Below, piece after piece: positions 19,097-56,690 of a DNA stretch of 64,000 bases. Within the stretch, counting starts at the first letter, position 1, and every line of letters begins with the position of its first letter. This DNA comes from Vicugna vicugna (Eukaryota). A program made the position numbers and the translations under genes. Under the pieces are notes generated by a model. It was not told the origin of the DNA, did not search any database, and worked only from the letters and a program-made list of their open reading frames with translations. The stretch lies in contig MU057889.1 of the NCBI GenBank assembly GCA_013265495.1, positions 1-64,000 on the forward strand. Reading direction: 5' to 3'.

Positions 19097-20614
19097 ATGG
19101 ACTGGCTCCTGCTCCTCCTGCTCCCAGGAGCCCTCGTGGTTCTGTGCCAGTCTTCCACAGAGGGTGAGTCCAACGGCAGGGAGGCAAAAGGGGCAGGGTG
19201 ATGGGGTCAGGGACTAATGTCCTCACAAGTCCCGATTAGGATGAGCAGGAGCTACAGAGACAGTATTTGCTGGAGCCAGGCCTCTGAGCCCTTGGCTGCT
19301 GCAAATTCCTTTCACCACCATGAAAACTCTTCCTGGGGACCCTGCTGTTACTGCTATCCAGTAGCTCCACCAAACTCTAACTCCAGGAATGGTGTGAGGG
19401 GAAAGGATGATAAAAAAAAAATCATTGGGAGTCTATTGCTGGGCAAGTTAGAGAGCAGAATCACCTTTCCTCTCAACTAAGGCCCAGGTCTTAATAACTC
19501 AGAAGAGAAATCCTCCTCCTTCCTTTCCCCCCATTACCTCCTGGGCTTCCTCTCTCAGCTAACCTTGGCCAGCCCTACTAGCAATTAAATACCCATTTCA
19601 GTGCCATTTCAGAAGCCACAGCCGCAGGCTGAGCCCGAAAAGAAAGAAGGGTTTGTGTTAACCCTATGATTCCTAAAACCAGATTCCGTGATAGATCTGG
19701 GCTCTGCAGGGAGGGTCCCCAGAGATCGGAAGAGGAGGGCCGGGGAAGCCCAAGGTTCTGGCCTCAGTCCCAACACCTGCTGCAGTGGCCCTTCTCTTTT
19801 CCCATTAACTACTTGGCATCCCTTGGTCTCATCCCATGATTCTCACATAACGTCCAGATTCTACAATGAGAAATATAATTTGCACCTCCTGCGATGAATA
19901 TGTTGGCAAGAACTGCAGAAAGAATTTGGGTTCCTGTCACTCCAAATATCCTGACTTTGCATGCCAAACCAAAGAAATATATTCTCAACATTACACTGGA
20001 GGTGAGGTGAGGGCAGGAGAAGGGGGAGCGATGGGGAGTTGAATTTTATGACTTGGCATAGTGGGGAAAAAAAAAGCACTAGGTATAGAGACAGAATTCT
20101 CTAGTCTGTACTCAGCTCATGGACTGAGGCATATTACTTCCTTTCTCTGAGTTAAAATTTCTCATCTGTACAATTATTGGGTTTTAATGGATGATCTCCA
20201 AATTCCTTCCCATTTCTGATGTTCAGGGATTGAATCCCTAACAGAGCAAGCCTGCTATAGCTCCTCTGCTATAAATGTATGTGGGTGTTGGGAGCAGAAG
20301 TGAGTTGCCCTGGAAGGAGGCTGCCCTTTTTGTGGAAGGGTCTTCAAGTCCAGGCTTTGTCTAAGGAGACAGGTGGGAAGGAAGGGACTGCAACATTCCC
20401 AAGTCTAACATGGACCTCTGTTATTTTCCTACCCTCTTCAGCTTATGTCTACCAATATTCTATACTGGGCTGCCCCAGAAGATGTGTGGAATATATAAGC
20501 TTCACCAGGTGGGAGAAAAACGTATTCTTCTGTTGTAATCAAAGCTACTGCAATAGCTTGTCAGTAAAGGATGAGAGTCCATTCAGTCCCATCATACCAC
20601 AGAATTTAGCCTGA
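19097..20614 (+). CDS. Unnamed PATE-family secreted three-finger protein, 127 aa; exons 19097-19163, 19858-20001, 20442-20614
   Basis: Signal MDWLLLLLLPGALVVLCQSSTE|gtgagt. Exon 2 DSTMRNIICTSCDEYVGKNCRKNLGSCHSKYPDFACQTKEIYSQHYTG. Exon 3 AYVYQYSILGCPRRC..FFCCNQSYCN.. Ten Cys, phase-1 GT-AG introns, AATAAA at 20747-20752. An additional micro-exon in intron 1 cannot be excluded. Confidence 0.88.
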
Positions 20615-30204: not shown

Positions 30205-31125
30205 GTTTGGGGGGGGTTGTTTTTATTTTCACTTTCATTGAGAAAAATGTATCTTTTTAATTTCTCTTTTTGTTTCTCAAAATTTTAATTATGGTAAAAA
30301 CACGTAAGTAAAATTTACCGTCGTAACCATTTCTACCGGTACAGTTAAGTAACGTTAAGTATATCCACACTGTTGTGAAACAGATCTTGAAAACTTTTTC
30401 ATCTTGCAAAACTGAAACTCTGTGTCCACCAAGTAGTAACTCTCCATTCCTCACCCCGCTTCACACAAGCCCCGGGCAACCACCATTACATTTTTTTCTA
30501 CAGGCAAACCTCAGAGATAGTGCAGGTTCGGCTCCAGATCACCACAATAAAGCAACTATCACAATAATCAAAGCAATCAAGGATGTCTGTATATGGATCT
30601 GACTCCTTGAGGAACCTCGTGTAAGTGGAATCATATGGTATTTGTCATTCGGATACTGTCTTGTTTTTCTTAGCACAAGATCCTCAAGGTTCATCCATAT
30701 GGCAGCTTGTATCCAACTTTTCTTCCTTTTTAAGACTGAATGACATTTCTTCATATATATGTACCACATTTTATTTATCCATTTATTGGCTGGTGAACAC
30801 TTGGGTAGCTTCCACCTTTTGGCTATTCTAAATAATGCTGCTATAAACATGGGTGTGCAAGTATCTCTTCGAGACCCTGTTCTCAACTCTTTTGGATCTA
30901 TACCCAGAACTGGAATTGCTGGTAATAACAACAATATGATAATAATAGTAACAAGGTGATTATACTTTTAATATTTTGAGCAATCATCGTGCTGTTTTCC
31001 ATAGTGGCTGCACCATTTTACATTTCCACTAACAGTGCACAGGAATTCCTCTTTCTCCACGACCTTATCAACACTTCGTTTCCTTTTTTTGGGATATCAG
31101 CCATCCTAATAGGTGTGAGGTGATA
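30205..31125 (-). mobile_element. L1 3' fragment with an embedded Tigger1 5' end (about 30501-30575); present only in the first duplication unit
   Basis: ORF2 C-terminus [31 protein letters not shown]; caggcaaacctcagagatagtgcaggttcgg resembles the Tigger1 TIR. Confidence 0.8.
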
Positions 31126-32741
31126 AAAGGCAGTTATTGAAACAATAAAAATCCCTCTCATTGGTCTTGCCTCCATCACAGTGACCTCCTCCCCTGACAG
31201 TTCTTTTTAGTGGGACCAGATATAAGTGCACACATCTTAATACAGGCGGGAATATCTGGGTTGGGTTTTATTGCCACTGATTTTGATGGGGCTGTTGCTG
31301 AAATATTTACATATAATAACAAGGCTCTGGCTTAGGCTAAGCTTCTTAGTGGCTAATTCAACTTGTCTTCCTTTCTGTCTCCTATCTCAGCTCAAATTTA
31401 GTGGAGAAATGTTTGAAATATTTAAATTTGATATCCTGAAAGAAAAGTACATTTTTAGAAGATTTTTCTTAAGACTTTGAAATTTTTTAACTAAATAAAA
31501 GTCATAAAGTGATTTAATTTATTCCTTTTTAGTCTTTTAGAGAGAAATATAAAATGTTCCATTTAGTTTGTTTTAAATTTTGAGTGGGAAACAGTCAAAA
31601 ATAAGTAACAAAAAATACAAATAATAATCTCCATTTCTTGTAGCAAACAGCAAAGGAAAAGAGAAAGAACGTATTTAAGACAAGTGATGGAAATTTTAAA
31701 AAAGGAGATGGACAAAAAGAGCAGGAAATATTATATGCAGAAGAGGAGAAGATGTATATATACACATTGCTACAGTTGTAACAAGAGGATTTTTACGTTA
31801 AACGAATGTAAACACCAAGAAGAAAAAAAAATGTTTCTTTGATTAAAAGCATAAAGGTTACTCTTCATATGAAAGATACCATTCCATTTTCTCCATTCCT
31901 CCCAAACTTCTCAAGCGGTTGCCTATCCTATTTCCTCCTGTCACAGCCCACCCATTCCTCAATCCATTGTCATGTGGTTTCTGTGCCTCTTCTCCATTGA
32001 ACCTGCTCTGCCAATAGCATGCAAGTTGTCACAGAAAGCAGAAAGTGACACTCTGCAGTCCTGGTTCTCCATCTACTTCTGTGACCACCACCCATGGCTC
32101 TTTCCAGAGAGTGACTTTCAACCACTTTTTATTTTGCTGGTCTCTAGCATCAATGATCTGTCCACCCTCACTCCCACCTCACTCACTAACAACCTCTTTA
32201 AGTCTTATCACCTAAGCTATCAGTAGATTCTGACCATGTCCATAGCATCTTAATCTGATGATCCCACTTTTTCTGCCTCCAGCCTTGGTATCTTCTTGGA
32301 CTTCGAGGCCCCTCTGTCCATCTGCCAGTTGGACACATTTTCCTGAGCTTCCCACTGACCCCACAAACTCCTGACATATAAAATGGAACCCATCACCTTT
32401 CTGGGCACATTGTAGTCCCTTCTGAGTTGGTGGGATTAGAAGCCAGGCAACCAGAGAAGTAGAGTGACTGTGAGGGATCAGGGAACACAAGGTGAGGTGG
32501 GCTGTGACTTGCAGATGTGAACGAAGCAGAGAGGTGAAACACAGATGAACCAAGAGCACTTGGTGTCAGGGGGAAGGAGCCAGCGGCCAGGGGAGAGGTG
32601 AAGAGGGATACGTGGAGGAGACAGGAGGTTCCTGCATGTTCTTCAGGAGCACACGTGGAGGGATACAGGACCAGAGATGCCAGGAACAGAAGGGTGAGTG
32701 GACACCACTGCTGACAAAGGAATTTGCTGTTAGCAAGCCTA

Positions 32742-34095
32742 TCATAATCGTCCTCTTCCATAATAACTATTACAGAACTCTTGACCTTTACAGCAAAAAG
32801 TTGAAATCTTCAGGTCCCCATTATAGAAACTTGAAGATGAACAGTAATCAAAACAGTCCAACTCAGTGTGGTTGTAGAGCCATCCAGCTGGAAGAGAAGG
32901 ATATTCACACTCAATACCTAGAACTAAAGTAAGAGGACCTTCCCCAACCACACCAAGCCTGGTCTCCAGAGTAGGGACACATCCACCTCCCAGCAAGGGC
33001 TCCCTCAGACTGGAGCCCCTACAGTGTCAGGAGCCAGGGGCCAGCTCAAGCTGGAAGAACCTGGCTTAAAAGCATTACCTTCCTCCGAGAAAATGTAGAA
33101 ATCTCTGGTTCTGCATCCAGGGCCTTGTTCCATCGTGCAATTGCCTTTGCCATTCAAACATTGACCTTTTTTAAAATTTCGGCAGACCATACACAATGTA
33201 TCTGGAGCTGCAGAAAACAGACATGAAGGCTGATCCTAGAGTTCCAACAGGCTGATGTTAAGGTGGGCTAGACCACTGACAGAGCCAAGAGGTCAAGTGA
33301 AAAACATGATCCTAAATACTTCCTCCAATTTACTCTTAAAGCCGGGAAATGTTTGCATCATATTATGACCACCGATTCTTTAAGGATCTGGGGGTTTTCA
33401 TACAGGGATCTTGATTCAATTAAAAATAAAGTGAAAGCTGTCCCCTTTGCTAAGATGCCATTATGCAGAACATTATCTACATACAGCCACCTGAGACCAG
33501 AATATCATGGGACATGAGGAGAGTGCTGGCTCCAAGGTGGGGATGCAGTCTCACAAAATTTCCTACTATATTCCCCACAAAAGATACCGGATATCCAAAC
33601 ATATCTAAGTGACAACTGCATTTACAATGGAAGTATCAGTTCAAGATAAGCCTTTCAGTGACCTGTTCTTGACAGATCACTGCTTCTCAGCTGCTTCTTT
33701 ATAGAAAGTCTTGAGCAACCACTGGCTCTGCCTCTTAGGACCATCCCAGCAAGCCACAAAATCTACAAGTGACAAGAGCTCCCAACCCCAATCGGCCCCC
33801 GGGAGTGACTGACCCCACTCTGAAACCTTGGAAAGGAAGTCACCTCTTTCCCTGGCAGCAGTCGGGGTGGGGATGGCAGAAAGAGACCTCAAATCCCTGC
33901 CGGTCAGGTCATCCCAGAACCTCATCCCTGACTCTGTCCCCTCCCAAGCTGGCCAGGTCATCACCCCGGAGCTGCTCCCCAGCCTACCTCCACAGCCTAC
34001 TCCCTGCCCAGCGACCACAGGCACTCACCCACTCCCTGGAAGAACACGAGCGGGAAGACTCCCAGCAGCAGAAGCAGAAGCAGGAGCCTGTCCAT
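32742..34095 (-). CDS. Unnamed PATE-family three-finger protein, paralogue D, 113 aa; exons 34095-34029, 33207-33079, 32887-32742
   Basis: [113 protein letters not shown]. Ten Cys, GT-AG phase 1, AATAAA at 32128-32133 (minus). Confidence 0.9.
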
Positions 34096-34689
34096 CCCGG
34101 TCTGGGGTGGCGGGAAGATGCAGAGGTGGCTGGAGGGGGGGAGCAGAGTGCCCGGGAAGGGCAAGGACAGGCTGCCCTCGCGTGCAGATGAGGGGGCTGA
34201 GGAATCTGCACTGAGCTGCTCCTGGGCTGTGGGTAGAAGCTTCCTTTTACGCACCTGCCAGTGGGCGTTTCACCGTCACACAGGCCCAGGAAACATTCCC
34301 ACAGAATCAGCCACCTTGGACACTTCCGAGGACAAATGTCCCACGTGCCCCTCCTGTTCCCTGGAGGCTGCCTCCTGATCAATGGGGGACACGATGCCTG
34401 ACCAGATTCGCTGGGCCCCTGAGCAATGCCTGACTCTTCCTAGACATTAATGCCTCAGGCCCAAGAACATGAGCTTCTAATGTGGGCAGAAATTTGCTAA
34501 AAGAGCCATTTCCCCTGGGTCCAGTGTCCCCTATGACTACCTCCCCTCTTGTCCCACAACCCAAGCCAGTACCCACGCTGGGCAGGCACTTGCCCCAGAG
34601 CTCAGAAAGCATTCATCCAGAGGTGCAGTCTGTGCCTTTCGCTTTTTTCTTCCCCCTCCTTCTGTTTGTACCCAGTTAGGATCATGGCC

Positions 34690-35115
34690 CTTTGCTAAAT
34701 AAAACACATTCATGACACTTGTTAAAAGCAGTAAAGTAGACTTTCTTCAGGGTGACAACTATAATGGGGTCTTGTAGTAGGGAAGAAAACTCAGACTCAA
34801 CTCTGAACACAACAAGGACAAGTAGAGATTTATAGCCAAGGAGCAGAGTGGGAGTCAGTGATGCAAAGTTACTAAGAGGAAACATCAAATCTATGGGAAA
34901 TCTTGGTAAGCTGGCTTAACAGGATTCTTGCTGAAGGCAGGGCAGGGTGATAAGATATGGAGACAGGGAATGAAGAATTTGGTCAGATATCAAGGTGGAA
35001 GATTTTTACTAAACTGATCCAGCAAAATTCTTGCTAAAATCGGACTAACTGTGCTAAGGGCAGGGCCAAGGTCAGGAACTAGTCAAAAAGAGTACTCAGA
35101 GAAGCTTGATTCTAC
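34690..35115 (-). mobile_element. ERV1 solo LTR (MER31-like)
   Basis: gacaagtagagatttatagccaaggagcag..actaagaggaaacatc and catgacacttgttaaa match the MER31 consensus as recalled. Absent from the second duplication unit. Confidence 0.65.
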
Positions 35116-37744
35116 AACCACTGCTACAAATGCAAATACATCATTTAGGATATATCATCAGCTATCATAAACACGTCATTAACAGATACACAGCAAACAC
35201 CATCCAAACAACAGAATAGAAGACTTAGAGATAGATAGGTGGCTCCATTATTTACAAAGGATAAAATAATTTCTACCATATTCAACTCTCTTATTTTTCT
35301 TAACCCTAAAAACATAGACCCATATTTACTAAGCTAGATTTATATAGATAGAGGCAATCACTTACTGCTCCAAGACTTGGCTGGAAGGCTCAGAATTTTT
35401 ACAGACACTTGATCAATATGGACTAACGAGGGTGGGGCCCATAAGACAAATAGGGAACAAATATTTTTCTTATTTTTAAATTACAGGAAACTACTTATAT
35501 TCTCTAAAGTGTCTTCACCGCACTCATCATGCTTAATAAAAATAACCAAGCCCCCAACTAGAGTGTTCACACCTAGAGACGCAGTCAAGGGAAGAGAAGG
35601 ATGTAGGAGCAAGATCCCAATGTGCAGGCTGGGCGCCGGAGATAACGTTCCAGGTCACAGGGGCAGTCTCCCTTCCCCTCCCTCCTCCTCCATCTAGACA
35701 ACCTTTTCATGGCAGAGACCTTGACACTCAGGTTCACCATTAGCCAGAAGCACTCGGCACAACACATGGTCCAGTAATATTTCTGACTCAACAAGAATAA
35801 TAGAACAAATAACTGAATGCACGAAGGTCTGCCAGCCCAGAAAGCAACTACGGGAGGGAAAAGGCCAAGAACCTCAACGCACCCACAGACTGAGAGTCCA
35901 GCTGCATCCCACACTTTGAGAGAAGAGATATAAGGCGTGAGGGCTCTCCTTCACCACTTTCAGAAGACAAAGATTGTTCAGAGTAAGATGCTGCAGGAGT
36001 GTGGGGCGCATGAATGAATGATTTCATTTTTAGCCAGTCTCCAAACTGAGCAACTTCGCTGAGTAACCCAGGGTCCCCTGTGTGTTCAGCCTGCCTCTCT
36101 AACGACAGCGGAATTCCAGAGATGCTCATGTTTCCCAAGTGCTACGCCACCCCCATCATAGGTATGCAAGAACAGAAGGTGAAGGAGGAGTAGAAAATGG
36201 AAGAAACAAGTAGGATATAAACATTATTGGAGCTTCCAAAGAACACATTTCTTCTTCCATAGCATTATTTTACTGAAGATACACTGTTCTGTGCAAACTT
36301 GAAGGATGTATTCATAATAACAGTGCAAAATGCATAGTGTATAGTGTAGTATTATAAAGGGACATGTTATCACTAAGGAATCTTGGAAAAGAGTGAAAAA
36401 CAGAAAATGATGATTTGGTTAAATCTTCTCATGGAAATGTATGCTCCCTGAACATTGATGGTGTTTCCAAAAGGAAGGATGTTTGCTTTACTGTGGAATT
36501 CTTTCAGCATTATGTACTTGTTCTATCTAGAGTGCTTATTGTAAACAAATCTTCTAAAGATTTAGGGGATGTGGTCCCACTAGGAAATGTCTGTGACAGC
36601 TATCTAGCTATAATAAAATAAAATGGAGATGCTATATGACTAAAACAGCTCCACACATAAAGTTAAATCTATACCAGAAAAGGCCATGATCTCACATTCC
36701 TGGCAAGCCTTCCTTCATCCACTCTTCCCCGTGAAGTTTCTTAAATAACATTCCATAACGTGCCTATATCAGGTTGTACTGGAAGATAATGGTCATTTTA
36801 AATAGTGGAGTTATGCTGGATGATACATGCACATCCCTGAAAAATGTGAACGTTTTCTGGTTTTTCAGGAGAGGAGACTTCAGAGGTCCATCAGGAATTG
36901 AGAGCTTGATAAGTGTCATTTATTACATTTATCCTGAGCCCATGAGACTCCTAAAGCTGGGAGAGATTTAACAGTTGGTCCTAATCCATGACTTTATTCC
37001 AAGTTTACTTACTAAATTACCCCTTCACTCCTCACATATTTCAGTCTAGGGAATAAATTATATGGTCATTCTACATAGCGGTCATCAGGGACAACCTCCC
37101 TCCCAGTCCAGGAAACTTCTTCTTGCCCCATTCTCATCTTAGAGAAAATGTTTTCTGCTTTTCACCACTGGGTACAATGTTAGCTGTGGGCTTGTCATAT
37201 ATGGCCTTTACTATGTTGAGGTATATCCCCTCTATACCTACTTTGTTGAGAGTTTTTATTATAAATGAATGTTGAACTTTGTCAAATGCTTTTTCTGCAT
37301 CTATTGTGATGATTATATGAATTGTATCCTAGGATATCCTGGAGTCTGCTATACTCTATCGTCTAAAAGACTCTTGAGAAACTTGTAATTTATGGATAGC
37401 AACTACATTCAAGAATATGAGATAATCACTTATTCTTACAAAACTGTAATAATTCTTACAGAGACTCTAATACCCAATAGTAGGCATTTAAGCAGGGAGA
37501 TCCCACACATGGTGGCATCCCTGCACTATTTTAACCCACACTCATGTCAGTGTCACATCAAACCCTTTCTAATCTACTCTGGCCAGGCAGGAGAAGGAAA
37601 CTTGAGAGGACCCCTTCCCCACTGGCTTTTCTCACACCATTTCTTCAAGTTGGTGTTGATGTCGACCTTGATCACCTGGCTGAGGTACTGTTTGTCAGGC
37701 TATTCCAAGTAAATTTATGTCTTTCCCCTTTCCATACTATGTGC

Positions 37745-38595
37745 TTTGTTTTTTCGTTTATTGAAGTATATAGTCAGTTTACAATGTGTCAATTTCTGGT
37801 GTACAGCATAATAGTTCAGTCATACAGGTACATACACATACTAGTTTTCATACTCCTTTTCATTATAGGTTACTACAAGATATTGAATATAGTTCCTTGT
37901 GCTACACAGTATACTTGTTTTATCTATTTTATATATAGCAGTATCTGCAAATCTCAAACTCCCAATTTATCCCTTCCCATTCCCTTCCCTCTCTGGTAAT
38001 CATAAGTTTGTTTTCTATATCTGTGAGTCTGTTCCAGTTTTGTAAATAAGTTCATTTGTTTTTTTTTAGATTCCACATATGAGTGATATCGCATGGAATT
38101 TTTTTTTCTTTCTGGCTTACTTCACTTAGAATGACAATCTCTGGGTCCATCCATGTTACTGCAAACGGCATTATTTTATTCTTTACTATGGCTGAGTAGT
38201 AGTCCATTGTATAAATACACCACAGCTTCTTTATCCAGTCATCTGTCGATGGACATTTAGGTTGTTTTCATGTCTTGGCTATTGTGAAGAGTGCTGCTAT
38301 GAACACTGGGGTGCATGTATCCTTTCAAATTAAAGTTCTCTCTGGATATATACCCAAGAATGGGATTGCTGGATCATATGGTAAGTCTATTTTCAGTTTT
38401 TAAGGAATCTGCATACAGTTTTCCATAATGGCTGCAGCAAACTGCATTCCCACCAACAGTGTAAGAGGGCTCCCTTTTCTCCACACGCTCTCCAGCATTG
38501 TCTGTGGACTTTTGAATGATGGCCATTTTGACTGTTGTGAGGTCATACCTCACTGCAGTTTTGATTTGCATTTCTCTGATAATTAGCGATACTGC
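37745..38595 (-). mobile_element. Young L1 3' fragment
   Basis: Reverse complement of the same L1 3'UTR and ORF2 end seen at 6870-7700. Confidence 0.85.
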
Positions 38596-39555
38596 ATACT
38601 ATGCTCTTTCAAAGCAAGTCACTGAGTAGCTCAGTGAGTCTGTTTTTAACTCTTCTGCTAACTTATTTGTAATTTTCAAATATTTTATGATAGCTAAAAT
38701 TTACATTGCTCATGAGAGTATGGCTAAGAAAGCAGTTTTTAAATAAAGGCCTATCACTATTCCTGCCTCCATCACCCTGGCTCATCCACAGTTCTCTTTA
38801 ATACCGCAAGATCTAACTAAACAAGCTCTAAGTAGGCTGGAATACTTGAGTTGATTTTTCCCTAGTGATGCTCATGGAGTTGTTCTTGATGTTTAAGAGT
38901 TGATACGGATTTGGCTTAGGCTGTGCCCCACAAGAGCTAATCCATCCGGCTTTACCTTTTATCTCCTGTCTCACTTCAATTTAACAGTTTTCCATAATGG
39001 CTGCAGCAAACTGCATTCCCACCAACAGTGTAAGAGGGCTCCCTTTTCTCCACACGCTCTCCAGCATTAATTGTCTGCGGACTTTTGAATGATGGCCATT
39101 TTGACTGTTGTGAGGTCATACCTCACTGCAGTTTTGATTTGCATTTCTCTGATAATTAGCGATACTGCATACTATGCTCTTTCAAAGCAAGTCACTGAGT
39201 AGCTCAGTGAGTCTGTTTTTAACTCTTCTGCTAACTTATTTGTAATTTTCAAATATTTTATGATAGCTAAAATTTACATTGCTCATGAGAGTATGGCTAA
39301 GAAAGCAGTTTTTAAATAAAGGCCTATCACTATTCCTGCCTCCATCACCCTGGCTCATCCACAGTTCTCTTTAATACCGCAAGATCTAACTAAACAAGCT
39401 CTAAGTAGGCTGGAATACTTGAGTTGATTTTTCCCTAGTGATGCTCATGGAGTTGTTCTTGATGTTTAAGAGTTGATAAGGATTTGGCTTAGGCTGTGCC
39501 CCACAAGAGCTAATCCATCCGGCTTTACCTTTTATCTCCTGTCTCACTTCAATTT
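38415..39555. repeat. Near-perfect tandem duplication of about 570 bp (38415-38982 and 38984-39555)
   Basis: Both copies begin acagttttccataatggctgcagc and end gtctcacttcaattt. By eye they differ by two substitutions and one 4-nt indel. Confidence 0.92.
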
Positions 39556-40892
39556 TAGGAGAAAAATTCCATGAAAAATATTTATACTTGACATTTCGAA
39601 AATAGAAGTAGATTTCTAAAAGATCATCCTACAAGTTCAAAATTTTTTAACTAAATAAAAATCACACAAAATGAATATTTTAGATTACAAGAGAAACAAA
39701 ATGTTATTCAAATTTTGTTTTAATTTATGAAGGATCAATGTAAGATTACATTAAATAAGTAAGACAATAATAATATTCTTCATTCTTGCATCATGAGTGG
39801 TAAGAGAAAGAACGGGATAAGGACAGAGGAAATGTAATACAAATGGGAAAAAAAACAGAGGTCAAAGAGGTAGAAAAAACACACAGAACTGGCGATAAAA
39901 GTTTTAAAATGCACATTGGGAGAGATAGTAAGATGGTGACAGATATTACCACAGTCATAATAATAGAGGCGTTTTACATTAAAGAGAAGACATAAACCTT
40001 CCTATGTCTAAAAAGATGTTAAACTCATTGTTTTATAAAAGATACTATTCTACTTTCAATTCCTCCCAAACTTCTCAAGCGGTTGCCTATCCTATTTCCT
40101 CCTGTCACAGCCCACCCATTCCTCAATCCATTGTCATGTGGTTTCTGTGCCTCTTCTCCATTGAACCTGCTCTGCCAATAGCATGCAAGTTGTCACAGAA
40201 AGCAGAAAGTGACACTCTGCAGTCCTGGTTCTCCATCTACTTCTGTGACCACCACCCATGGCTCTTTCCAGAGAGTGACTTTCAACCACTTTTTATTTTG
40301 CTGGTCTCTAGCATCAATGATCTGTCCACCCTCACTCCCACCTCACTCACTAACAACCTCTTTAAGTCTTATCACCTAAGCTATCAGTAGATTCTGACCA
40401 TGTCCATAGCATCTTAATCTGATGATCCCACTTTTTCTGCCTCCAGCCTTGGTATCTTCTTGGACTTCGAGGCCCCTCTGTCCATCTGCCAGTTGGACAC
40501 ATTTTCCTGAGCTTCCCACTGACCCCACAAACTCCTGACATATAAAATGGAACCCATCACCTTTCTGGGCACATTGTAGTCCCTTCTGAGTTGGTGGGAT
40601 TAGAAGCCAGGCAACCAGAGAAGTAGAGTGACTGTGAGGGATCAGGGAACACAAGGTGAGGTGGGCTGTGACTTGCAGATGTGAACGAAGCAGAGAGGTG
40701 AAACACAGATGAACCAAGAGCACTTGGTGTCAGGGGGAAGGAGCCAGCGGCCAGGGGAGAGGTGAAGAGGGATACGTGGAGGAGACAGGAGGTTCCTGCA
40801 TGTTCTTCAGGAGCACACGTGGAGGGATACAGAACCAGAGATGCCAGAACAGAAGGGTGAGTGGACACCACCACTGACAAAGGAATCTGCAG

Positions 40893-42549
40893 TTAGTGAC
40901 GCTTCCAGTGCAGTGATCTCCCCCTATACATATTGCAGAACTCTTGACCTTCACAGCAAAAGCTTGAAACCTTCGAGTATGCACGAATCAACTTCCAAGC
41001 CCTACACTTAACAGAACAGTCCAATTGAGTGTGATTGTAGTGCCACATATCTGGAAGAAAAGGACATTTATACTCAGTGCCAGAGAACAATACTTGGAAC
41101 TAAATAAAGTAAGGGGACCTTCCCCACCACACCAAGCCTGGTCTCCAGAGTAGGGACACATCCACCTCCCAGCAAGGGCTCCCTCAGACTGGACCCCCTA
41201 CACAGTGTCAGGAGCCAGGGGCCAGCTCAAGCCGGAAGAGCCTGGCTTAACAGCATTACCTCTCACATGGAAAAAGTACACATCCGTGGTTCTGCATCCT
41301 GGGCCTGCCTCCATAGTGCAGTTACCCTCACCTTCCAAACATTTGCCCTTCTTAAAAATACTGCAGACTTTACACAAGGTGGCTGGAGCTGCAGAGAAAC
41401 AGACATGGAGGCTGAGCCCAGGGTTGAATGCGCTGAGACCAAGGTGTGTAAGACACATTAGGATCCAGGATTTTAGAGACAAAAGATGACTCTAAATATT
41501 TCTCCTGCAAATAATTTGGGGTAAGAAATACCCCCTCTAGACTGCTTCCATTGGATATTTAAGGAAATGGGGTCTTTGACGTGAGGATCTCAAAATCCAT
41601 TAATCATAAATAACTTGTATATACTTTAAGAGTGAATTGGATGGTATGTGAATTATATCCCAGTAAAGCTGTTTTCTTTTTAAATAACCTTGAACAAGAA
41701 TATGAGACATGACTCGCCAGGTGATATGAAGATATTAGAAGGTGAAACAAGAGAAAAAGGTATGGGTTCTAACCAAGCAAGTGAAATTTCCACACTTGCA
41801 CCTAAACAACACTAAGAGATTATGTCTCCTTAATTTTGGTTTCCTGGGAGCCTGCCTGAGCTTTGTGCTCACATGCTCCCTTTGGCTTTGGATCAATTGT
41901 GCTAAACACATTCAGAACATCTACATATAGTCACCCTGGGCCAGAATCTCTGGGGGAATGGATGGGGCATAAAGACTGCACTGGCTTGAAGGTGAGGAGG
42001 TAGATTTTAGTCTCCAAAGATTTCCTAGGACAGCACCAAAAGTCATCCAAAGTATACACATATCTAAGTGAAAACAGTCCTGTAAAAATACTGGTTCAAA
42101 ATAAGCAATCGAATTACCTCTTCAGATCATGTCACTGACCCGTGGTTGCTTCTTTATAGAAAGTCTTGAAAACCTTTGGCTCTTCCTCTTAGGACCATCC
42201 CAGCAAGCCACAAAATCTACAAGTGACGAGAGCTCCCAACCCCAATCGGCCCCCGGGAGTGACTGACCCCACTCTGAAACCTTGGAAAGGAAGTCACCTC
42301 TTTCCCTGGCAGCAGTCGGGGTGGGGATGGCAGAAAGAGACCTCAAATCCCTGCCGGTCAGGTCATCCCAGAACCTCATCCCTGACTCTGTCCCCTCCCA
42401 AGCTGGCCAGGTCATCACCCCGGAGCTGCTCCCCAGCCTACCTCCACAGCCTACTCCCTGCCCAGCGACCACAGGCACTCACCCACTCCCTGGAAGAACA
42501 CGAGCGGGAAGACTCCCAGCAGCAGAAGCAGAAGCAGGAGCCTGTCCAT
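40893..42549 (-). CDS. Unnamed PATE-family three-finger protein, paralogue E, 117 aa; exons 42549-42483, 41388-41260, 41050-40893
   Basis: Same exon 1 as paralogue D, then APATLCKVCSIFKKGKCLEGEGNCTMEAGPGCRTTDVYFFHVR-DMWHYNHTQLDCSVKCRAWKLIRAYSKVSSFCCEGQEFCNMYRGRSLHWKRH. Ten Cys, AATAAA at 40292-40297 (minus). Confidence 0.9.
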
Positions 42550-45489
42550 CCCGGTCTGGGGTGGCGGGAAGATGCAGAGGTGGCTGGAGGGGGGGAGCAG
42601 AGTGCCCGGGAAGGGCAAGGACAGGCTGCCCTCGCGTGCAGATGAGGAGGCTGAGGAATCTGCACTGAGCTGCTCCTGGGCTGTGGGTAGAAGCTTCCTT
42701 TTACGCACCTGCCAGTGGGCGTTTCACCGCCACACAGGCCCAGGAAACGTTCCCACAGAATCAGCCACCTTGGACACTTCCGAGGACAAATGTCCCACGT
42801 GCCCCTCCTGTTCCCTGGAGGCTGCCTCCTGATCAATGGGGGACACGATGCCTGACCAGATCTGCTGGGCCCCTCAGCAATCCCTGATTCTTTACTCTCT
42901 GGACATCCCACTATCCCAGGTCGAAGATCAGGGGCATCTAACAGGGGCAGGGCTTTGCTAAAATAGTCATTTTCTCTAGGTCCAATGTCCCTTATGACTA
43001 CCCCCTTCTCTTGTCCTACAGCACAGGACAGTACCCACCCTGGGCTGACAGCTGCCTCAGGGCTCAGAAAGCATTCATCACAGGAGCAGTCTATGCCTCC
43101 TGCCTTCCCCTTCCTTATATTTGAGCTCACAGTTGAGACCAGGGGCCTCTCAACACAGAATCAGTGTTGACAATGGCAGGGGTAGTTACAATAGCAAACA
43201 TTTACTTAGTATTTTCCATAAACCAGTACCCACATCTACTGCTACCATGCATATCTTAATCAGGATGTATCTTCAACCCATCATAAACACATTATATATA
43301 CAGCAAATACTTTTTAAACAAAAAAGGAACAAAAGCAATATAGAGAACTAGTTTATTTTATAAAATACGAAACACTTCCTGGTATATTACTGTTATTTCT
43401 CTGGACACTAAAGGAAGCAGATAATACTTTTAATTTAAAATTTTGTTGTTGTTATTCACAGGAATACTTTTGCCCTGACACCTCTGAAATTACAATCTTA
43501 TAGTATCCTGAATTCACTATTTGCATATTTAAAAGAGCCAATTCCCCAACTACAATGTTCATGTTTATATTCTAGTTACATCCAGTCAAGGGAAGAGAAG
43601 GATGTAGGAGCAAGATCCCAATGTGCAGGCTGGGCGCCGGAGATAACGTTCCAGGTCACAGGGGCAGTCTCCCTTCCCCTCCCTCCTCCTCCATCTAGAC
43701 AACCTTTTCATGGCAGAGACCTTGACACTCAGGTTCACCATTAGCCAGAAGCACTCGGCACAACACATGGTCCAGTAATATTTCTGACTCAACAAGAATA
43801 ATAGAACAAATAACTGAATGCACGAAGGTCTGCCAGCCCAGAAAGCAACTACGGGAGGGAAAAGGCCAAGAACCTCAACGCACCCACAGACTGAGAGTCC
43901 AGCTGCATCCCACACTTTGAGAGAAGAGATATAAGGCGTGAGGGCTCTCCTTCACCACTTTCAGAAGACAAAGATTGTTCAGAGTAAGATGCTGCAGGAG
44001 TGTGGGGCGCATGAATGAATGATTTCATTTTTAGCCAGTCTCCAAACTGAGCAACTTCGCTGAGTAACCCAGGGTCCCCTGTGTGTTCAGCCTGCCTCTC
44101 TAACGACAGCGGAATTCCAGAGATGCTCATGTTTCCCAAGTGCTACGCCACCCCCATCATAGGTATGCAAGAACAGAAGGCGAAGGAGGAGTAGAAAAAG
44201 GAAACAGAATATAAAAAAGTTATTGGAGCTTCCAAAGAACACATTTCTTCTTCCATAGCATTATTTTACTGAAGATACACTGTTCTGTGCAAACTTGAAT
44301 AATATATTGATAACAATAAGTGCATACTACATAATGCATAATGTGATATTGTAAAGGGACATGTTATCACTAGGGAACCTAGGAAAAGAGTTAAAAACAG
44401 AAAATAACATTCTGGTGAAATCTTCTCATAGAAATGTATGCTCCTCAAACACTCTGTGATGGTGTTTCCCAAGGAAAGGTCAGCAGTGGATGCCTAAGTA
44501 TGAAATTATTTTAGCATGATGTACCTGTTTTATCTAGGGTGCTTACAATAAACAAACCATGTTTTAAAGATACAGGAGATGTGGTCCCACTAGAAAACAT
44601 CTGTGACAGCTATCTAACTATACTAACATAAAATGGGGATGCTACTTGATTAAAACAGCTCCACACATAAATCATAAGTTAAATCTATACCAGAAAAGGC
44701 CAGGAGCACCTCAAAGAAGAATACACTGCCCCACATTCCTGGTTGCCCTTCCTTTTTCCACTCTTCCCCACAAAGTTTCTTAAATAACATTCTATAATGT
44801 GTCTGCATTAGATTGTACAGGAAGATAATGGTCATTTTAAATAGTGGAGTTATGCTGGATGATACACGCACATCCCTGAATGATGTGGTGTGAAAGTTTT
44901 CCGTTTTTTCAGAAGAGGAGGTCCATGAGGAATTGAGAGCTTGATTAAGTATTAATATATTAAATTTACCTGAGCCCATGAAACTCCTAAAGTTGGGAGA
45001 GATCTAACAGTTAGTCCTAATTCATGACTTTATTCAAAGCTTACTTACTAAATCACTCCTTTCGTTCCCCAAATGCTTTAGTTAGGGAATAAATTATGTG
45101 GTCAGTCTACTTAGCGGTCATCAGGCACAACCTCTCTCCCAGTGCAGGAAACTTCTCTTGGGCAGCACTCAGACAGGGGGTGACAAGAACCACCACAAGC
45201 TTCCAGACCCACGCCAGTCCCCATCAGATCTTTCAGGAATGTGTGTAGGCTGAGATCCCACAAGGAAGTGCCCTAGTCAGAGCACCGGCTGAGAAATCAG
45301 ATAGATCTGGGTTTGAAGGCTCATTCCAACATTTACAGGCTATGAGACCCCAGCAAATCATTAATCTGTAGGGAATATTACAGCACTTACGTCATTAGGT
45401 TGCTGGCTCAATTCTTCATATTAATTTTCTCCTCAATTATTATCAGAGAATCCAGTTAAGAAAAGTTTAATTTAAGAAACAGGATGAAT

Positions 45490-50100: not shown

Positions 50101-52117
50101 GAATCTCAGGCCATTTCTTAATAACAAGGACTCATACTACCACACCCACCACCACCACTCACTCTTTCTTCCTCACCCCTTCTCACATTTCATCCACCAC
50201 ATTAACATTGATGTTTCCTGGTGTTTATTCCTCGGTGCTTTTCTCACAGAGTTCATTGGTGGGGGTGGGGGGCTCATTAACTCTCATAATGATAGCCATC
50301 AAATTCTCTTGGGCTACACTTAACCATCTACTATACAGGCTAATGGTCTCAAGTCTTTTACCCATGGGCTTTTTGGATCCTTAGACCTCTCTATGAACTT
50401 CCTGTTATGATGGCCAACTGGATTTTCCTCTGGCCCATCATATTCATTATGTCCAAAAGAGATCTCATCGTCCTCCCATGAAAACTGCTTTGCCCCCCTA
50501 AATTCTCAGTCTAAATACCTTCAATTACTTCTAGTCCAGAAACCTGGGAGTTTGGTCTGTGATCCCCACCCCCTCATCCAACCACAATTTTACCAGCTAA
50601 CATATTGTAAATCTGCTTCTCCTTACCATATCTACTAAAACAGTTCTAACAACTTGGCACACAAAGTACCCCAAGGCTTTGCCCCTCCTTCCTCTTTGGC
50701 CTCCTCTCCCACTTTCTTTTTTTTTTTTTTTTACTTTACTCTTTAGTAATTCTAAACAGATTGTGGCTGCCCACATACAACTTGCCTGACTCCAAGTTTT
50801 TGGTCTTAAAGTACTCTTTTCCTCAACTTTCTCTAAATAATCCTCATGTATTTTACTCAATTATCATTTCTTATAAATCTAGAACCCCTAGACCAGCTTA
50901 GATGCCCCTGATCTGTGCTCCCATAGGAACCCATGCTTACTTTCTTCCCATATATACCACATTATGATGAAATTTTTTATGTCAGACTTCCTAAATGAAG
51001 GCAAGGAATGTAACTTTTCAATATTTAACTGTGCTTTAAATTTTTTTTATTTAAAAAGTTGATTTATAATATTGTATTAGTTTTAGGTGTACATCAAAAT
51101 GATTCAGTTATATATATACAATGTATCAAGATATATTTATCTTGAGATATATATATTATACATATATTTTTAAAATTATGAATCTCAAAAATATATTGAA
51201 TATAGTTCCCTATGGTATACAGTGGCCCCTATTGTTTATCTATTCTATATATAGTAATGTATATCTGTTAATCCCATACTCCTAATTTATCCTTTCCCCT
51301 CCCCTTTCCCCTTTGGTAACCATAAATTTGTTTTCTGTCTGTTGAGTATGTTTCTGTATTATAAATAAGTTGATTGTATTTTTTTTAGATTCCCTATATG
51401 TGTTATTATGTAGTATGTCTTTCTCTGTATGACTTATCTCAGTATGATAATCTCTAAATCCATCAATATTGCTGGAAATGGCAATATTTCATTATTTTTT
51501 ATGGCTGAGTAATAGTCCATTGTGTGTGTGTGTGTGTGTGTGCATGACATCTTCTTTATCCATTCATCTGTTGATGAACACTAAGATCGCTTCCATGTCG
51601 TGGCTGTGGCAAACAGTGCTGCTGTGAGCACTGGGGTGCATGTATCTCTGCACTGGAGTATTTGTCTTTTCCAGATATATGCCCAGGAATAGGATCACTG
51701 GATCATACGGTTAAGTCTATTTTTAGTTTTTTAAGGAACCTCCATACTGTTTTTCAAGGTGGTTACACCTATTTACAGTCTCACCAACAGTATACAAGGG
51801 TTCCCTTTTCTCCATATCCTTGCCAACACTTGTTTTCTTGATGATGGCCATTCTGACAGGTGTGAGGTGATACCTCATTGCGGTTTTTGATTTCAATTTC
51901 TCAGATGATCAGTGATGTTGTGTACCTTTTCATATGCTTGTTGGCCATCTGCATTTCCTCTTTGGAAAAATGTCTATTCAGTTCTTCTGACCCTTTTCTA
52001 AATTGGGTTGTTTGTTTTTTTGGTGTTGAGTTGTATGGGCTTTTTATATACAGTGGATATTAATTCTTTATCAATCACATCATTTGCAAATATTTTTTTC
52101 CCATTCAGTATGTTGCC

Positions 52118-53596
52118 TTTTTTTTTTTTTTTAAGAACACCGTATTAACTTTATTCTAAGTCTCCATAGCTCCCCCAGGCCATCGGGCCAGTAGCAGGAA
52201 CAGGCCTCAGGCCTGTGAGGTTACAGGGTTCAACACGAAGTATTTTTCTAGCACCAAAATGCATTTCCTCCTAGTCCTGGGGCGCCGGCAAGAGCCCTGG
52301 GTGGTGGGAGCACCTCCACCCATTGAGAAGGGGGCTCGGCGCTCGGCGCCCCAGAAAGCCGCAGCTACTGGCCGAGCGCCGTGGAAGAACCCAGCCTCAC
52401 CCAAGCTCCCGGCGCGACATCGCCCTAAGGTCTGCGGGCCGCTGAGGCGGAGAAAATGGTCGCAAGGGAGGAAGGGACCGAGCGTGCGAGGGGCGTGAGG
52501 CTGCCGGCTATGCGCGTCCCCACGGGCTCGGGGAACCAGGGTCCCGGCGCCCGAGCCTCTCCCCGCGGGCCCTGGCTGGGGAGGTGACATGCCATCCCGC
52601 CCCCTCCCGCCGGCCTAGCCCGGCCACTCCCGTCGCCTGAGCCTCGTGCCCACCCGCCCACCAGGCCCGGCTCTCACCGTCCTCAGGTTCACACAGCCCA
52701 AGGGGCGGCGGGCGATCACGTCACTGCAGACCCGGATGCAGAGGATGGCCCGGCCGGGCTGAACCTGTCGCGGAGCATCGCCTCGGTCACATCGGGGTGA
52801 GGCCACGGGGACGCTGGGGTTCACCCTGCCTCAGGCCGCGACCTTTCTGTGAGGAGAAAAGCGGGTGCAGGGCCGGGGGCGGAGCAGGAGCCGGAGGGCG
52901 GGGAACGAGGGCAAGCGCCGAGGGCCAAAAGTCACCCGGACTCGAAAACTACGCCGCCGCCGTAGGACGGGGTCGATGGGCTGCAGGCCGGGCCGCCAGG
53001 GCGGCGGTGTCGGGGCCGCGCAGCCAGGAGGCCTCGGCCGCCTGGTTCCCTCGGGGAGCTGCTGAGGCGCTGCGGGCCGGCGGGTGGGTCGGTCTTGGCT
53101 GCTTCACCGGGTTATTTCATAAAAGAGGAAGAAATACTTCTCCAGCCAGGAAGACGCGGATTTCTTGTAAAAATTTTTGAGGGATTTTAAAAGATTGTTA
53201 TTTAGAGTTTTTTTTAAATAATAAATGTGTGACTGATGAGGGATGTTGAGGGTAGGGGAATATATATATGTGTGGGTGGGGAGGGCTTTGTGGGAACTCT
53301 GTATTTTCTGCTCAATTCTGTTGTGAACCTGAAACTACTCTAAAAGAATAAAGTCTATTAAAAATAATAATAGAAGGATATTTTAATTATAAAGTTCTAA
53401 ATGGGCATTTTAAATCGTGGTGTTTACCCATTTGAACTCCTCGAGGCAGCAGTGCCTAAAGACATTAACTGTGGGATTTTTCAGATATATATGCCAATAA
53501 ATTCCTTTTCCTTAAAAAAAAAATGATAATAAATGTGTGATCGGAGCCAGGAGCACACACTCGGTCCACACTCAGCACTAACTGCTGGGGGAAGGG
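52118..53596 (-). pseudogene. PABPC1: PABPC1-derived retrocopy: 5'TOP, 5'UTR, degenerate exon 1, retained intron-like sequence, AATAAA and poly(A)
   Basis: Minus strand starts CCCTTCCCCCAGCAGTTAGTGCTGAG and contains an A-rich tract and TGAAATAACCCGGTGAAGCAGCC..GAAAGGTCGCGGCCTG, all matching the PABPC1 5'UTR as recalled. The CDS remnant reads (V)NPS..HPDVTEAML..FSPAG..ILCIRVCSDVIARRPLG..VN. GACG|GTGAG at 52678/52677, AATAAA 52155-52150, A15 52132-52118. Confidence 0.85.
53233..53525 (+). mobile_element. Nested retroposed fragment (L1MC-like 3' end, MLT-like poly(A) region, A10) with a 15-bp TSD
   Basis: ATAATAAATGTGTGA at both 53218-53232 and 53526-53540; AATAAA 53496-53501; A-run 53514-53523. 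Confidence 0.8.
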
Positions 53597-55063: not shown

Positions 55064-56690
55064 GCTCCAATAAATAACTTGTAGATTGTGGAGAGAAGTA
55101 TTGTGAACTTTGGAGACAGGTTGGGTGGAAATCTGCTTCCGTAGTTTTGGGAAACTATCACACCTCTCTAGGCTTTCGGTCCCTCATCTACAACATGGGA
55201 ACAGTAATAGTACATCCCCACCAAAATTTTCTGCAGACACCTCCCAAATGAACTATCACATTAGAATTCTTGTCTCAGGCTCTGCTTCAGGTGAACTCAA
55301 ACCATGACCGTGGGAAGGACGAGAAAAGCCTCGAGTGTGCAGAATCCATTCTTCTGTGAAAAGTGGGGTTCCCGGTCAGGTTTTGAGAGGCTGCCTCCCC
55401 CAGAGCTCTACTCCAGTTCACATCATCCACCGCCTGAGCCTAGGACTCATCTCCCAAAATACTGAGCAAGGCAGCTGTGCACAACAGGCTGAATTTTCTC
55501 ACTGAGCAAATGCTGGAAAGGCCCTGGGTCCAGAGAAGACCTGCGCATCAGGGAGATGGGGAGGCTGGAGCAGGACCTGGTTACCCCCCGGGCTTGGGGG
55601 GGGTGGGTCCTCGGTGGCTATAGTGCTGTGAGGGCAGTCAGTAGAAAAGCAAACTGACCTTCCTGGACTCCAGGTGAACCTTGCCCCTTCCCCTCCCGGA
55701 TGTATGTGGGGGATGACTCCCTCCCGTCTGCAGCACTGCTGAGGGCACCTGGCCAACGGACACCTCCCCCACTGGATTTATAGCCTGGACTCATTGCAAA
55801 TGTGAAGGGGACGCGGTGGGGTGCATTGTACTTACGAAGCCCCTCCTGACGCCTCTCATTTATCGTCTTCAGGAATCCGTCCATCTGTTAGTTCCCTCTG
55901 AAAACTTCTAAGGTCCCAATTTTCCAGTAGAAATTCTGAACAATCCAGTGACTCCCCTTTGCAGACAGTTGCTAACATCTCTGCTGCTCCAGAAGATAGA
56001 CTTTGCTGCCCCTTAATCTCCTTCCTCCTCCTCTTCCTCCTTTCTTCCCCTTCCTAGGCAGCCTTGTCTGTGGCCTACCTCAGACCACAGATCTCTCTTT
56101 TTCGGTGGCCATAATGCTCACAAGCCCTTCCTAGGTCCAAAGTCTATGCTGCATTTGGAGGTGGACAGGTGTAAGTTCCACTTCTGTGTTAGATCGCTTT
56201 ATCATAAGTGCCTCCATTTTTTACTGATTTAAGCCACCAATAACTTCAGAGATTTGTGTCACAACACCTAGCTCACTCAACTAACATATCATTTGTGGAC
56301 CTCCTCACACTCCCACCATTTTCAGCTTTTGAAGACTCTCCCTTCTCCTTCAGCTCCTTCTTCCGGAACACAAACAATCACAATTTCATAGTCTTCCCCA
56401 GACACTGCCTTTTTAAGCAGCAATCAATGCGACTGAAGATTAGAGCCAGAAAAAGTACCCTTGGACCTCACTATGCCCGCCACTTTTTCACTCCAGTTTG
56501 GTTTTAAAGACCATCCTGAGGGCATTTCACAATGAAGGGAAGGACATGGAGCCTGAAAACAAAATGAGACTGAGGCTGCTTCTCACAGGGGACCTGTATT
56601 CAGATCACAGAGTCTCAGAGACTGTGGTAGCAGAAAGAGATGCTCAGTTAGCTTTAACCACCAGATCAGGGCAAAAGCTGGGCGCTGTCT

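Follow-up and report, generated by a model that had tools for sequence, protein, structure and literature searches.

How can two neighbouring genes be almost identical in their first exon, at their 3' end and in a block far upstream, while the mature proteins that they encode clearly differ? This question is raised by a stretch of 64,000 nt from Vicugna vicugna (assembly GCA_013265495.1, contig MU057889.1, positions 1 to 64,000 of the forward strand; this whole stretch is called the window in the following). It holds two tandem genes, here named A and B, for predicted secreted proteins with a three-finger LU domain. An earlier note, made by a model from the sequence alone, had explained the mosaic by an old duplication under recurrent gene conversion. 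Our analysis supports this, as the signal exons cluster by lineage and the LU domains by paralogue at the protein level. For the whole explanation, in which overwriting of the LU exons would be selected against and conversion would be tolerated elsewhere, we estimate a probability of roughly 0.78.

Two tandem units with a mosaic of identity

The following features of the two units are used throughout:

32742..34095, minus strand: gene A, 113 amino acids, exons within these bounds, from splice sites and translation
34029..34095, minus strand: gene A, coding part of exon 1, signal peptide
33079..33207, minus strand: gene A, exon 2, first half of the LU domain
32888..33078, minus strand: gene A, intron 2, matching intron 2 of B at 92%
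32742..32887, minus strand: gene A, coding part of exon 3, second half of the LU domain and stop, 66% identical to B
40893..42549, minus strand: gene B, 117 amino acids, exons within these bounds, from splice sites and translation
42483..42549, minus strand: gene B, coding part of exon 1
41260..41388, minus strand: gene B, exon 2
41051..41259, minus strand: gene B, intron 2
40893..41050, minus strand: gene B, coding part of exon 3
31895..32668, minus strand: tract 1 of unit A, predicted 3' untranslated region (3'UTR) and about 235 bases further downstream, AATAAA at 32133
40059..40832, minus strand: tract 1 of unit B, AATAAA at 40297
33731..34407, minus strand: tract 2 of unit A, about 310 bases 5' of the ATG, the signal exon and the first 300 bases or so of intron 1
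42185..42861, minus strand: tract 2 of unit B
35582..36197, no strand assigned: tract 3 of unit A, a block 1.5–2.1 kb 5' of the ATG
43583..44198, no strand assigned: tract 3 of unit B
36198..37125, no strand assigned: older layer, 85% identical to 44199–45160
31001..31894, no strand assigned: diverged downstream flank of unit A, 62% identical to 39318–40064

As read from the sequence, both genes consist of three coding exons with phase-1 introns, and the Leu-rich N-terminus of 22 residues has an exon of its own. Both proteins possess ten cysteines in an LU pattern closing in CC-x-CN; all ten are invariant in alignment A6, nine are invariant and one is near-invariant in A5. The stop codons are predicted to follow 8–12 residues past this CN, without a glycosylphosphatidylinositol (GPI) tail.

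Self-comparison of the window yielded three large aligned blocks between 31.9–37.1 kb and 40.0–45.2 kb. The three near-identical tracts that the earlier note had described were recovered at the same positions, with 0 differences over 774 bases in tract 1, 4 over 677 in tract 2 and 1 over 616 in tract 3 (ungapped comparison), and each has just two copies within the window. The longest identical run measures 774 bases; when the 5440 aligned columns were shuffled 2000 times, the longest run averaged 38 and never exceeded 76. Most of the units is clearly diverged, as had been claimed (59–62% identity in spacers and flanks), with 62% in the middle of intron 1 and 59% with many gaps between 34669–35529 and unit B. 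The reported high similarity of the short intron 2 was reproduced as well (92.1% over 190 aligned bases, with a perfect run of 68 bases at 32947–33014), and so was the difference at 34 of the 83 LU residues (positions 23–105). Exon 2 of A and B is 72.9% and the coding sequence of exon 3 is 66.4% identical. Identity starts at the donor site of exon 2 and resumes about 20 bases past the stop codon of A.

Some of the labels given to these segments have to be adjusted. The tract described as 3'UTR is identical as claimed and extends beyond that label, since about 235 of its bases lie on the far side of the AATAAA at 32133, in the downstream flank. The tract described as exon 1 plus promoter is near-identical too; it also takes in about 300 bases of intron 1, and its promoter is putative. 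A TATA match was not found in tract 2. Tract 3 is a candidate enhancer. A scan for androgen-response and ETS motifs found no full androgen-response element and no enrichment in the tracts. Finally, the size of about 8 kb given for the units fits the spacing of the repeats (8.0–8.45 kb) and not the homologous unit itself. Homology continues into the downstream flanks, at 62% over 784 columns, with an old L1-like piece in both (65%), so that the duplicated unit comprises about 6.1 kb and is old.

The divergence comes in layers: 0.24% in the three tracts, a Jukes-Cantor distance (JC) of 0.083 in intron 2, 0.165 in 36198–37125 and 0.5–0.6 in the spacers. At a neutral rate of about 2e-9 per site and year, the last reset of the tracts falls roughly within the past 1 million years. 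In a peptide upstream of dolphin B, 48 residues match camelid B, among them a segment which A is without. Since dolphin B and camelid B share what camelid A lacks, part of the 85% block predates the split of camelids and whales, unless A lost this segment later.

The content of guanine plus cytosine (GC) amounts to 0.50, 0.61 and 0.50 in the tracts versus 0.32–0.42 in the flanks, and falls sharply from 0.50 to 0.32 at the border of tract 3. GC-biased conversion was considered and set aside: the matching 770 bases after the four other LU genes of the window have a GC content of 0.41–0.48, which leaves the excess in tract 1 a weak signal. Between the units, 38415–38982 and 38984–39555 are near-identical copies of about 570 bases in head-to-tail order, with 2 substitutions and one indel of 4 bases. 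This arrangement is either a recent tandem event or a false duplication of the assembly.

Age of the gene pair

For the comparison among mammals, A/B pairs were taken from three homology searches and three cluster look-ups. This gave 24 pairs with both signal exons intact, models with a missing or mis-predicted N-terminus being left out. In three pairs (Bos, Myotis, otariids) A and B come from different species of the same genus or family; in the case of pig the A model was chosen whose Leu run matches B, the alternative model being two Leu shorter. The tree of LU domains has 45 rows, without an outgroup root; three partial or odd B models were excluded.

A single branch of this tree separates A from B, with 1 label change and a support of 92/80, and the split is present in 93% of 200 bootstrap trees. 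The nearest neighbour of an LU domain was an orthologue from another family in 42 out of 42 cases and the paralogue from its own family in none, with no ties. Among 11 laurasiatherian pairs the LU identity of A and B is 0.606 within the same taxon versus 0.600 across taxa; orthologues of either type are 74% conserved, and the two types are 60% identical to each other. Since the LU domains split by paralogue across orders, these sequences indicate that the tandem duplication of A and B is older than the divergence of Laurasiatheria and Euarchontoglires. A recent duplication of the whole unit is ruled out by the flanks, at 59–62%, and by the LU split common to several orders.

Conversion of the signal exon in many lineages

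The signal exons group in another way than the LU domains. Their nearest neighbour is the paralogue from the own family in 39 out of 48 cases and the orthologue from another family in 5, with 4 ties, and the signal tree contains 18 changes of the A/B label, at least 14 of them forced by well-supported (starred) branches. Nine of the 24 signal pairs are identical, nine are 1–2.5 units and six are 3.5 or more units apart; the distance is 1.5 or less in 11 families, and the mean between families is 5–9 units.

Many peculiarities of single lineages are found in the signals of both paralogues. Both dolphin copies have the cetacean deletion of two residues, the pig signals a KP insertion and a longer Leu run, and the carnivore signals Ala at a Gly position, together with AVFPF in canids and MDKS in otariids. 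Vesper bats have FMFF in both, and even within one genus Peromyscus maniculatus (SLMFF) differs from P. californicus (SLVFF) by Met versus Val in both paralogues. In the gene models of dolphin (P0106) and horse (P0115), one chain runs through B and then A, both of which have a separate copy of the signal, and 44 and 26 upstream residues, respectively, are identical between the copies, while the upstream peptides of dolphin and camelid are about 50% identical. In the window, synonymous divergence (dS) between the first exons of A and B is 0. Comparisons of this kind indicate recurrent conversion of the signal exon in many lineages, and of the adjoining upstream sequence in dolphin and horse. 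Conversion of intron 2, of the 3' tract and of the upstream block is seen in this camelid window alone.

Four murine pairs have A and B signals 7.5–8.5 units apart. In the murine proteins P0162, P0165, P0168, P0190 and P0191 the two signals have diverged, and conversion has seemingly stopped in Murinae.

Two further observations concern the neighbourhood of the signal exon and intron 2. One RefSeq model of pig A has the orthologue of 34256–34327 as its first exon, joined directly to exon 2; this may be a modelling error or a hint that transcription or splicing takes place 5' of the signal exon. Among peptides reading through intron 2, a piece from a bat B model resembles pieces from bat A models; there was no pair from the same species and these peptides were not counted.

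Why the LU exons remain distinct

The LU exons of A and B have a nonsynonymous divergence (dN) of 0.283 and a dS of 0.747 (1.14 in exon 2, 0.48 in exon 3) and are without indels. Only for residues 77–95 is dN the higher value, at 0.74 versus a dS of 0.45, on 13 synonymous sites. Thus two exons of 129 and 146 bases are anciently diverged and the intron of 190 bases between them is at a JC of 0.083; 15 of its 190 sites differ, versus 24 of 51 synonymous LU sites (Fisher test, p = 1e-9). Constrained exons free of indels and flanked by converting DNA should be good substrates, so that their exclusion points to selection against overwriting. Concerning the claim that selection excludes conversion from the binding domain, the exclusion is confirmed by a dS of 0.75 beside an intron at 0.08, and selection is its likely cause.

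Assignment to the PATE family

Four further LU genes are located inside the window, orthologues of A and B carry the names PATE or Sslp1-like, and the gene order of the window is also seen in fused gene models of dolphin, horse, sheep and one bat. We identify the window from these similarities as the PATE cluster. A groups with the mouse Pate5 cluster in the LU tree, which assigns it to the Pate5 (PATE-A) type; B is its sister type, probably rat Pate-F. Like A and B, rodent Pate5 (PATE-A) and rat Pate-F are three-exon genes of the PATE cluster for secreted LU proteins with ten cysteines (PMC4839075, PMC3192744, PMC3316536, PMC6744855, PMC10266198). UniRef lists a hamster B protein under the name Pate-f, and among the rat PATE proteins PATE-A and PATE-F are closest to each other, with a ClustalW score of 50 versus at most 33 for the others (PMC3316536). 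The mouse "Pate-F" is a gene with 8 cysteines (PMC3192744), and the Pate5 cluster of mouse includes Gm5916, an A-type copy with an altered C-terminus; hence there is no simple mapping of names.

Gene B is 99.1% identical to the alpaca protein XP_031526227.1. The sole difference between gene B and that protein is at residue 79 in exon 3, with Val in the window and Asp in alpaca. The Pfam profile UPAR_LY6 matches the A orthologues of goat (26.0 bits) and porpoise (26.3 bits) above its cut-off and mouse Pate5 slightly below; alpaca B gave no match with it and single exons no LU match, and several B orthologues carry a precomputed PF00021. A match to Toxin_TOLIP stayed under the cut-off, and A and B are not toxins by any test applied. 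The structure model of alpaca B is of low confidence (predicted local distance difference test, pLDDT, 55; predicted template modelling score, pTM, 0.36), and a search of the PDB sequences with the B profile gave 0 matches at E 0.1. A complex prediction for the mature domains of goat A and goat B scored 0.00 in both runs, which were made without alignments or folded controls and are evidence neither way.

A proposed mechanism and its alternatives

We propose the following course of events. A and B would be secreted three-finger proteins of the PATE family from an ancient tandem duplication, and non-allelic gene conversion between the units, 8 kb apart, has recurred independently in many lineages, as the signal exons show. 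Tracts that enter exon 2 or 3 would overwrite a surface specific to one paralogue and be removed by selection, so that identity ends at the exon edges. Unconstrained spacer DNA may have escaped passively by indels and decay. The promoter-proximal, signal, 3' and upstream segments would have remained alignable because they are constrained, doing the same job in both genes, and conversion there would be tolerated and self-sustaining. The outcome would be two different ligands from the same epididymal cells, as suggested by the rodent orthologues.

Several points weigh against this interpretation. The branch between A and B has a support of 92/80, which is below the starred level of the tool, in an unrooted tree. 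The evidence across species is at the protein level and concerns 20–22 residues of low complexity, and with 9 of 24 pairs identical some models could share one annotated exon. Conversion seems to have lapsed in the four murine pairs and to be weak in rabbit and hamster. Trees per segment, as had been suggested with the original idea, were run on proteins, with signal exons grouping by lineage and LU domains by paralogue. The C-terminal tails do not group by lineage: their nearest neighbour is the paralogue in 0 out of 71 cases and the orthologue in 68, with 3 ties. As the tails group by orthologue, they give no support beyond this window for conversion of the 3' end. Within exon 3, moreover, 32 bases (32769–32800 and 40932–40963) have 2 differences between A and B and the common residues GQEFCN, where GRDFCN or GQDFCN is found in the proteins of pig, ruminants and whales; this is possibly a micro-conversion inside the camelid exon. 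Cnephaeus nilssonii has an A model with a B-like exon 2 and a B model out of frame (P0034, P0074), either a chimera of gene models or a conversion into the LU exon. Judged by these cases, the exclusion of the LU exons from conversion is not absolute.

Conversion of the regulatory segments might itself be favoured, if A and B had to be produced jointly in a constant ratio. The converted segments make up nearly all of the cis-regulatory inventory, with the upstream block, the 5' region and the signal exon as well as the 3'UTR and the poly(A) region, the pattern is kept in the 11 families with close signals, and rat Pate-A and Pate-F were reported as co-regulated (PMC3316536). However, the same map is expected if conversion is merely tolerated, and intron 2 is homogenised too, without an obvious regulatory role. 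In murines, the signals have drifted apart and co-expression in rat nevertheless persists, if rat Pate-F is B. The same observation, the lapse in four murine pairs with rat Pate-A and Pate-F still reported as co-expressed, speaks against the proposal that conversion keeps expression, secretion and mRNA control matched, which is not supported by these data. We regard this possibility as unlikely and favour conversion of the regulatory parts that is tolerated and self-sustaining.

It also appears improbable that the LU exons escaped by neutral processes only, having passed the homology threshold early, so that ongoing selection is unnecessary. Passive escape from conversion is permitted by established theory, and at 66–73% identity the exons are now poor substrates, like the spacers. 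Yet they are free of indels, under purifying selection (dN 0.28, dS 0.75) and have converted DNA on both flanks, with identity returning precisely at the donor of exon 2 and, beyond the stop of A, within about 20 bases; constrained DNA without indels should be the last to escape neutrally.

Much more doubtful is a collapse during assembly or polishing. An identity with 0 differences in 774 bases is extreme, the near-identical tandem duplication of about 570 bases sits between the units, and 33% of the 31-mers of unit A also occur in B, so that a word search in sequencing runs cannot separate the copies. The share of unit A words in 14 DNA runs from 7 studies, 0.88–0.93, shows that the sequence exists in other animals and is no test of collapse. 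But a collapse requires near-identity beforehand, and tracts 2 and 3 retain 4 and 1 differences. The exon 1 pattern is present in independent assemblies of many species, nine pairs differ by 1–2.5 units, and the dolphin and horse models have both copies in series, which for exon 1 argues for conversion and not for an assembly artefact. Polishing could at most have erased the last percent of tract divergence. Finally, strong purifying selection without conversion since the duplication is hardly conceivable, even if the near-identical segments are plausibly functional, since they differ between species (upstream peptide, signals) while matching within species, since intronic and third-codon sites are identical too, as the dS of 0 in exon 1 shows, and since the grouping within lineages contradicts it.

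Comparison with known systems

Snake three-finger toxins have conserved introns and variable exons, which is credited to accelerated exon evolution in young duplicates. They are like the PATE pair in the fold superfamily, as predicted for the latter, in the layout of three exons and in non-coding DNA that is more alike than the exons. In contrast, the PATE pair derives from an old duplication, its dN is lower than dS, and its non-coding identity was reset by conversion. A dN of 0.28 below a dS of 0.75, together with 74% conservation among orthologues, speaks for LU exons that are unconverted and not accelerated. The resemblance to snake toxins drawn by the earlier note is therefore superficial, exon acceleration being absent at dN 0.283 versus dS 0.747. 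In primate L/M opsins and clustered protocadherins introns or domains are homogenised and the specificity exons excluded from conversion; the opsin duplication is far younger than the PATE pair, and conversion in protocadherins affects coding ectodomains.

Recurrent lineage-specific conversion in ancient tandem paralogues was described for TLR1/TLR6 of mammals and for TLR1A/B and TLR2A/B of birds (PMC3125219, PMC6107061). As in the PATE pair, the converted part groups by species and the unconverted specificity region by orthologue, and conversion has lapsed in one lineage, most primates there and murines here. Unlike in the PATE pair, the converted part of the TLRs is the coding C-terminal region, with borders mostly not reaching into the 3'UTR; in the PATE pair the signal exon, an intron and non-coding flanks are converted around a fully unconverted mature domain. 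In the salivary SSSGP-1 genes of the Hessian fly, as in the PATE pair, promoter, untranslated regions, signal region and intron are conserved around a divergent mature region, and homogenisation by short conversion tracts was proposed for them (PMC2955719). The fly genes form an array of seven in which the mature region is under strong positive selection (PMC2955719), whereas the PATE pair consists of two genes that persist in different placental orders and whose mature domains are each under purifying selection. No published report of conversion in PATE genes was found in the literature searched, which was without most subscription papers; gene conversion in such genes is not treated in the available part of PMC8830517, nor mentioned in those of the rodent Pate papers cited above. 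Segmental conversion with excluded segments is a known mode of evolution, of which the PATE pair is a new instance.

Expression and function

Mouse Pate5 is specific to the initial segment and under lumicrine control (PMC10266198, PMC3192744). In rat, Pate-A and Pate-F are both reported to be confined to the caput, with onset at day 40, and dihydrotestosterone restores neither (PMC3316536). Two RNA runs labelled as reproductive system contain a share of 0.25 of the unit A words, many of which are common to A and B; this would fit expression of either gene or of both. RNA runs with smaller shares (0.12 and 0.09) were disregarded.

Mice without the 841-kb Pate8-Pate10 interval lose ADAM3 from their sperm, which cannot pass the uterotubal junction, and are almost infertile (PMC6744855). 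Pate5 lies within this interval (PMC10266198). As A and B are conserved across placentals, they would be natural candidates within it, and may be prime candidates for the deletion phenotype. In mouse, Gm27235 is a candidate for the B orthologue. One may go further and imagine A and B as the ancient core of the Pate8-Pate10 interval, acting jointly on sperm as partners or as ligands of the ADAM3 pathway, with conversion selected since early placentals to keep enhancer, promoter, signal and 3'UTR in lockstep and the products at a fixed ratio. This extension is speculative and rather unlikely to be correct.

Other features of the window

A minus-strand LU gene at 9800–11200, with LU exons at about 10867 and 9873, is PATE1-like by its sequence. 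Two LU genes are on the plus strand, one at 19881–20614, with an extended C-terminus in the last exon, and one at about 2000–2150. Upstream of B another LU gene (56690–58800, minus strand) matches an Sslp1/Pate14-like exon of the fused sheep and bat models. An intronless open frame of 284 residues at 60049–60903 (minus strand), which resembles a Na,K-ATPase beta subunit, is probably a processed copy. The GC-rich, island-like region 52100–53200 has several long open frames, adjoins an L1-like region and may be a long terminal repeat or a promoter.

Significance

Because of the identical untranslated regions and first exons, 3'-tag RNA sequencing, probes and short-read variant calls cannot separate A and B in livestock camelids. 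The pair provides a compact natural case in which conversion and selection can be followed side by side over neighbouring exons and an intron, in a pattern found in at least 11 mammalian families, with the murines as a built-in control lineage in which it stopped. Pate5 had been suggested to be maybe mouse-specific (PMC4839075), which the placental homologues found here contradict. Pate5 and its sister are conserved placental genes and not inventions of the mouse.

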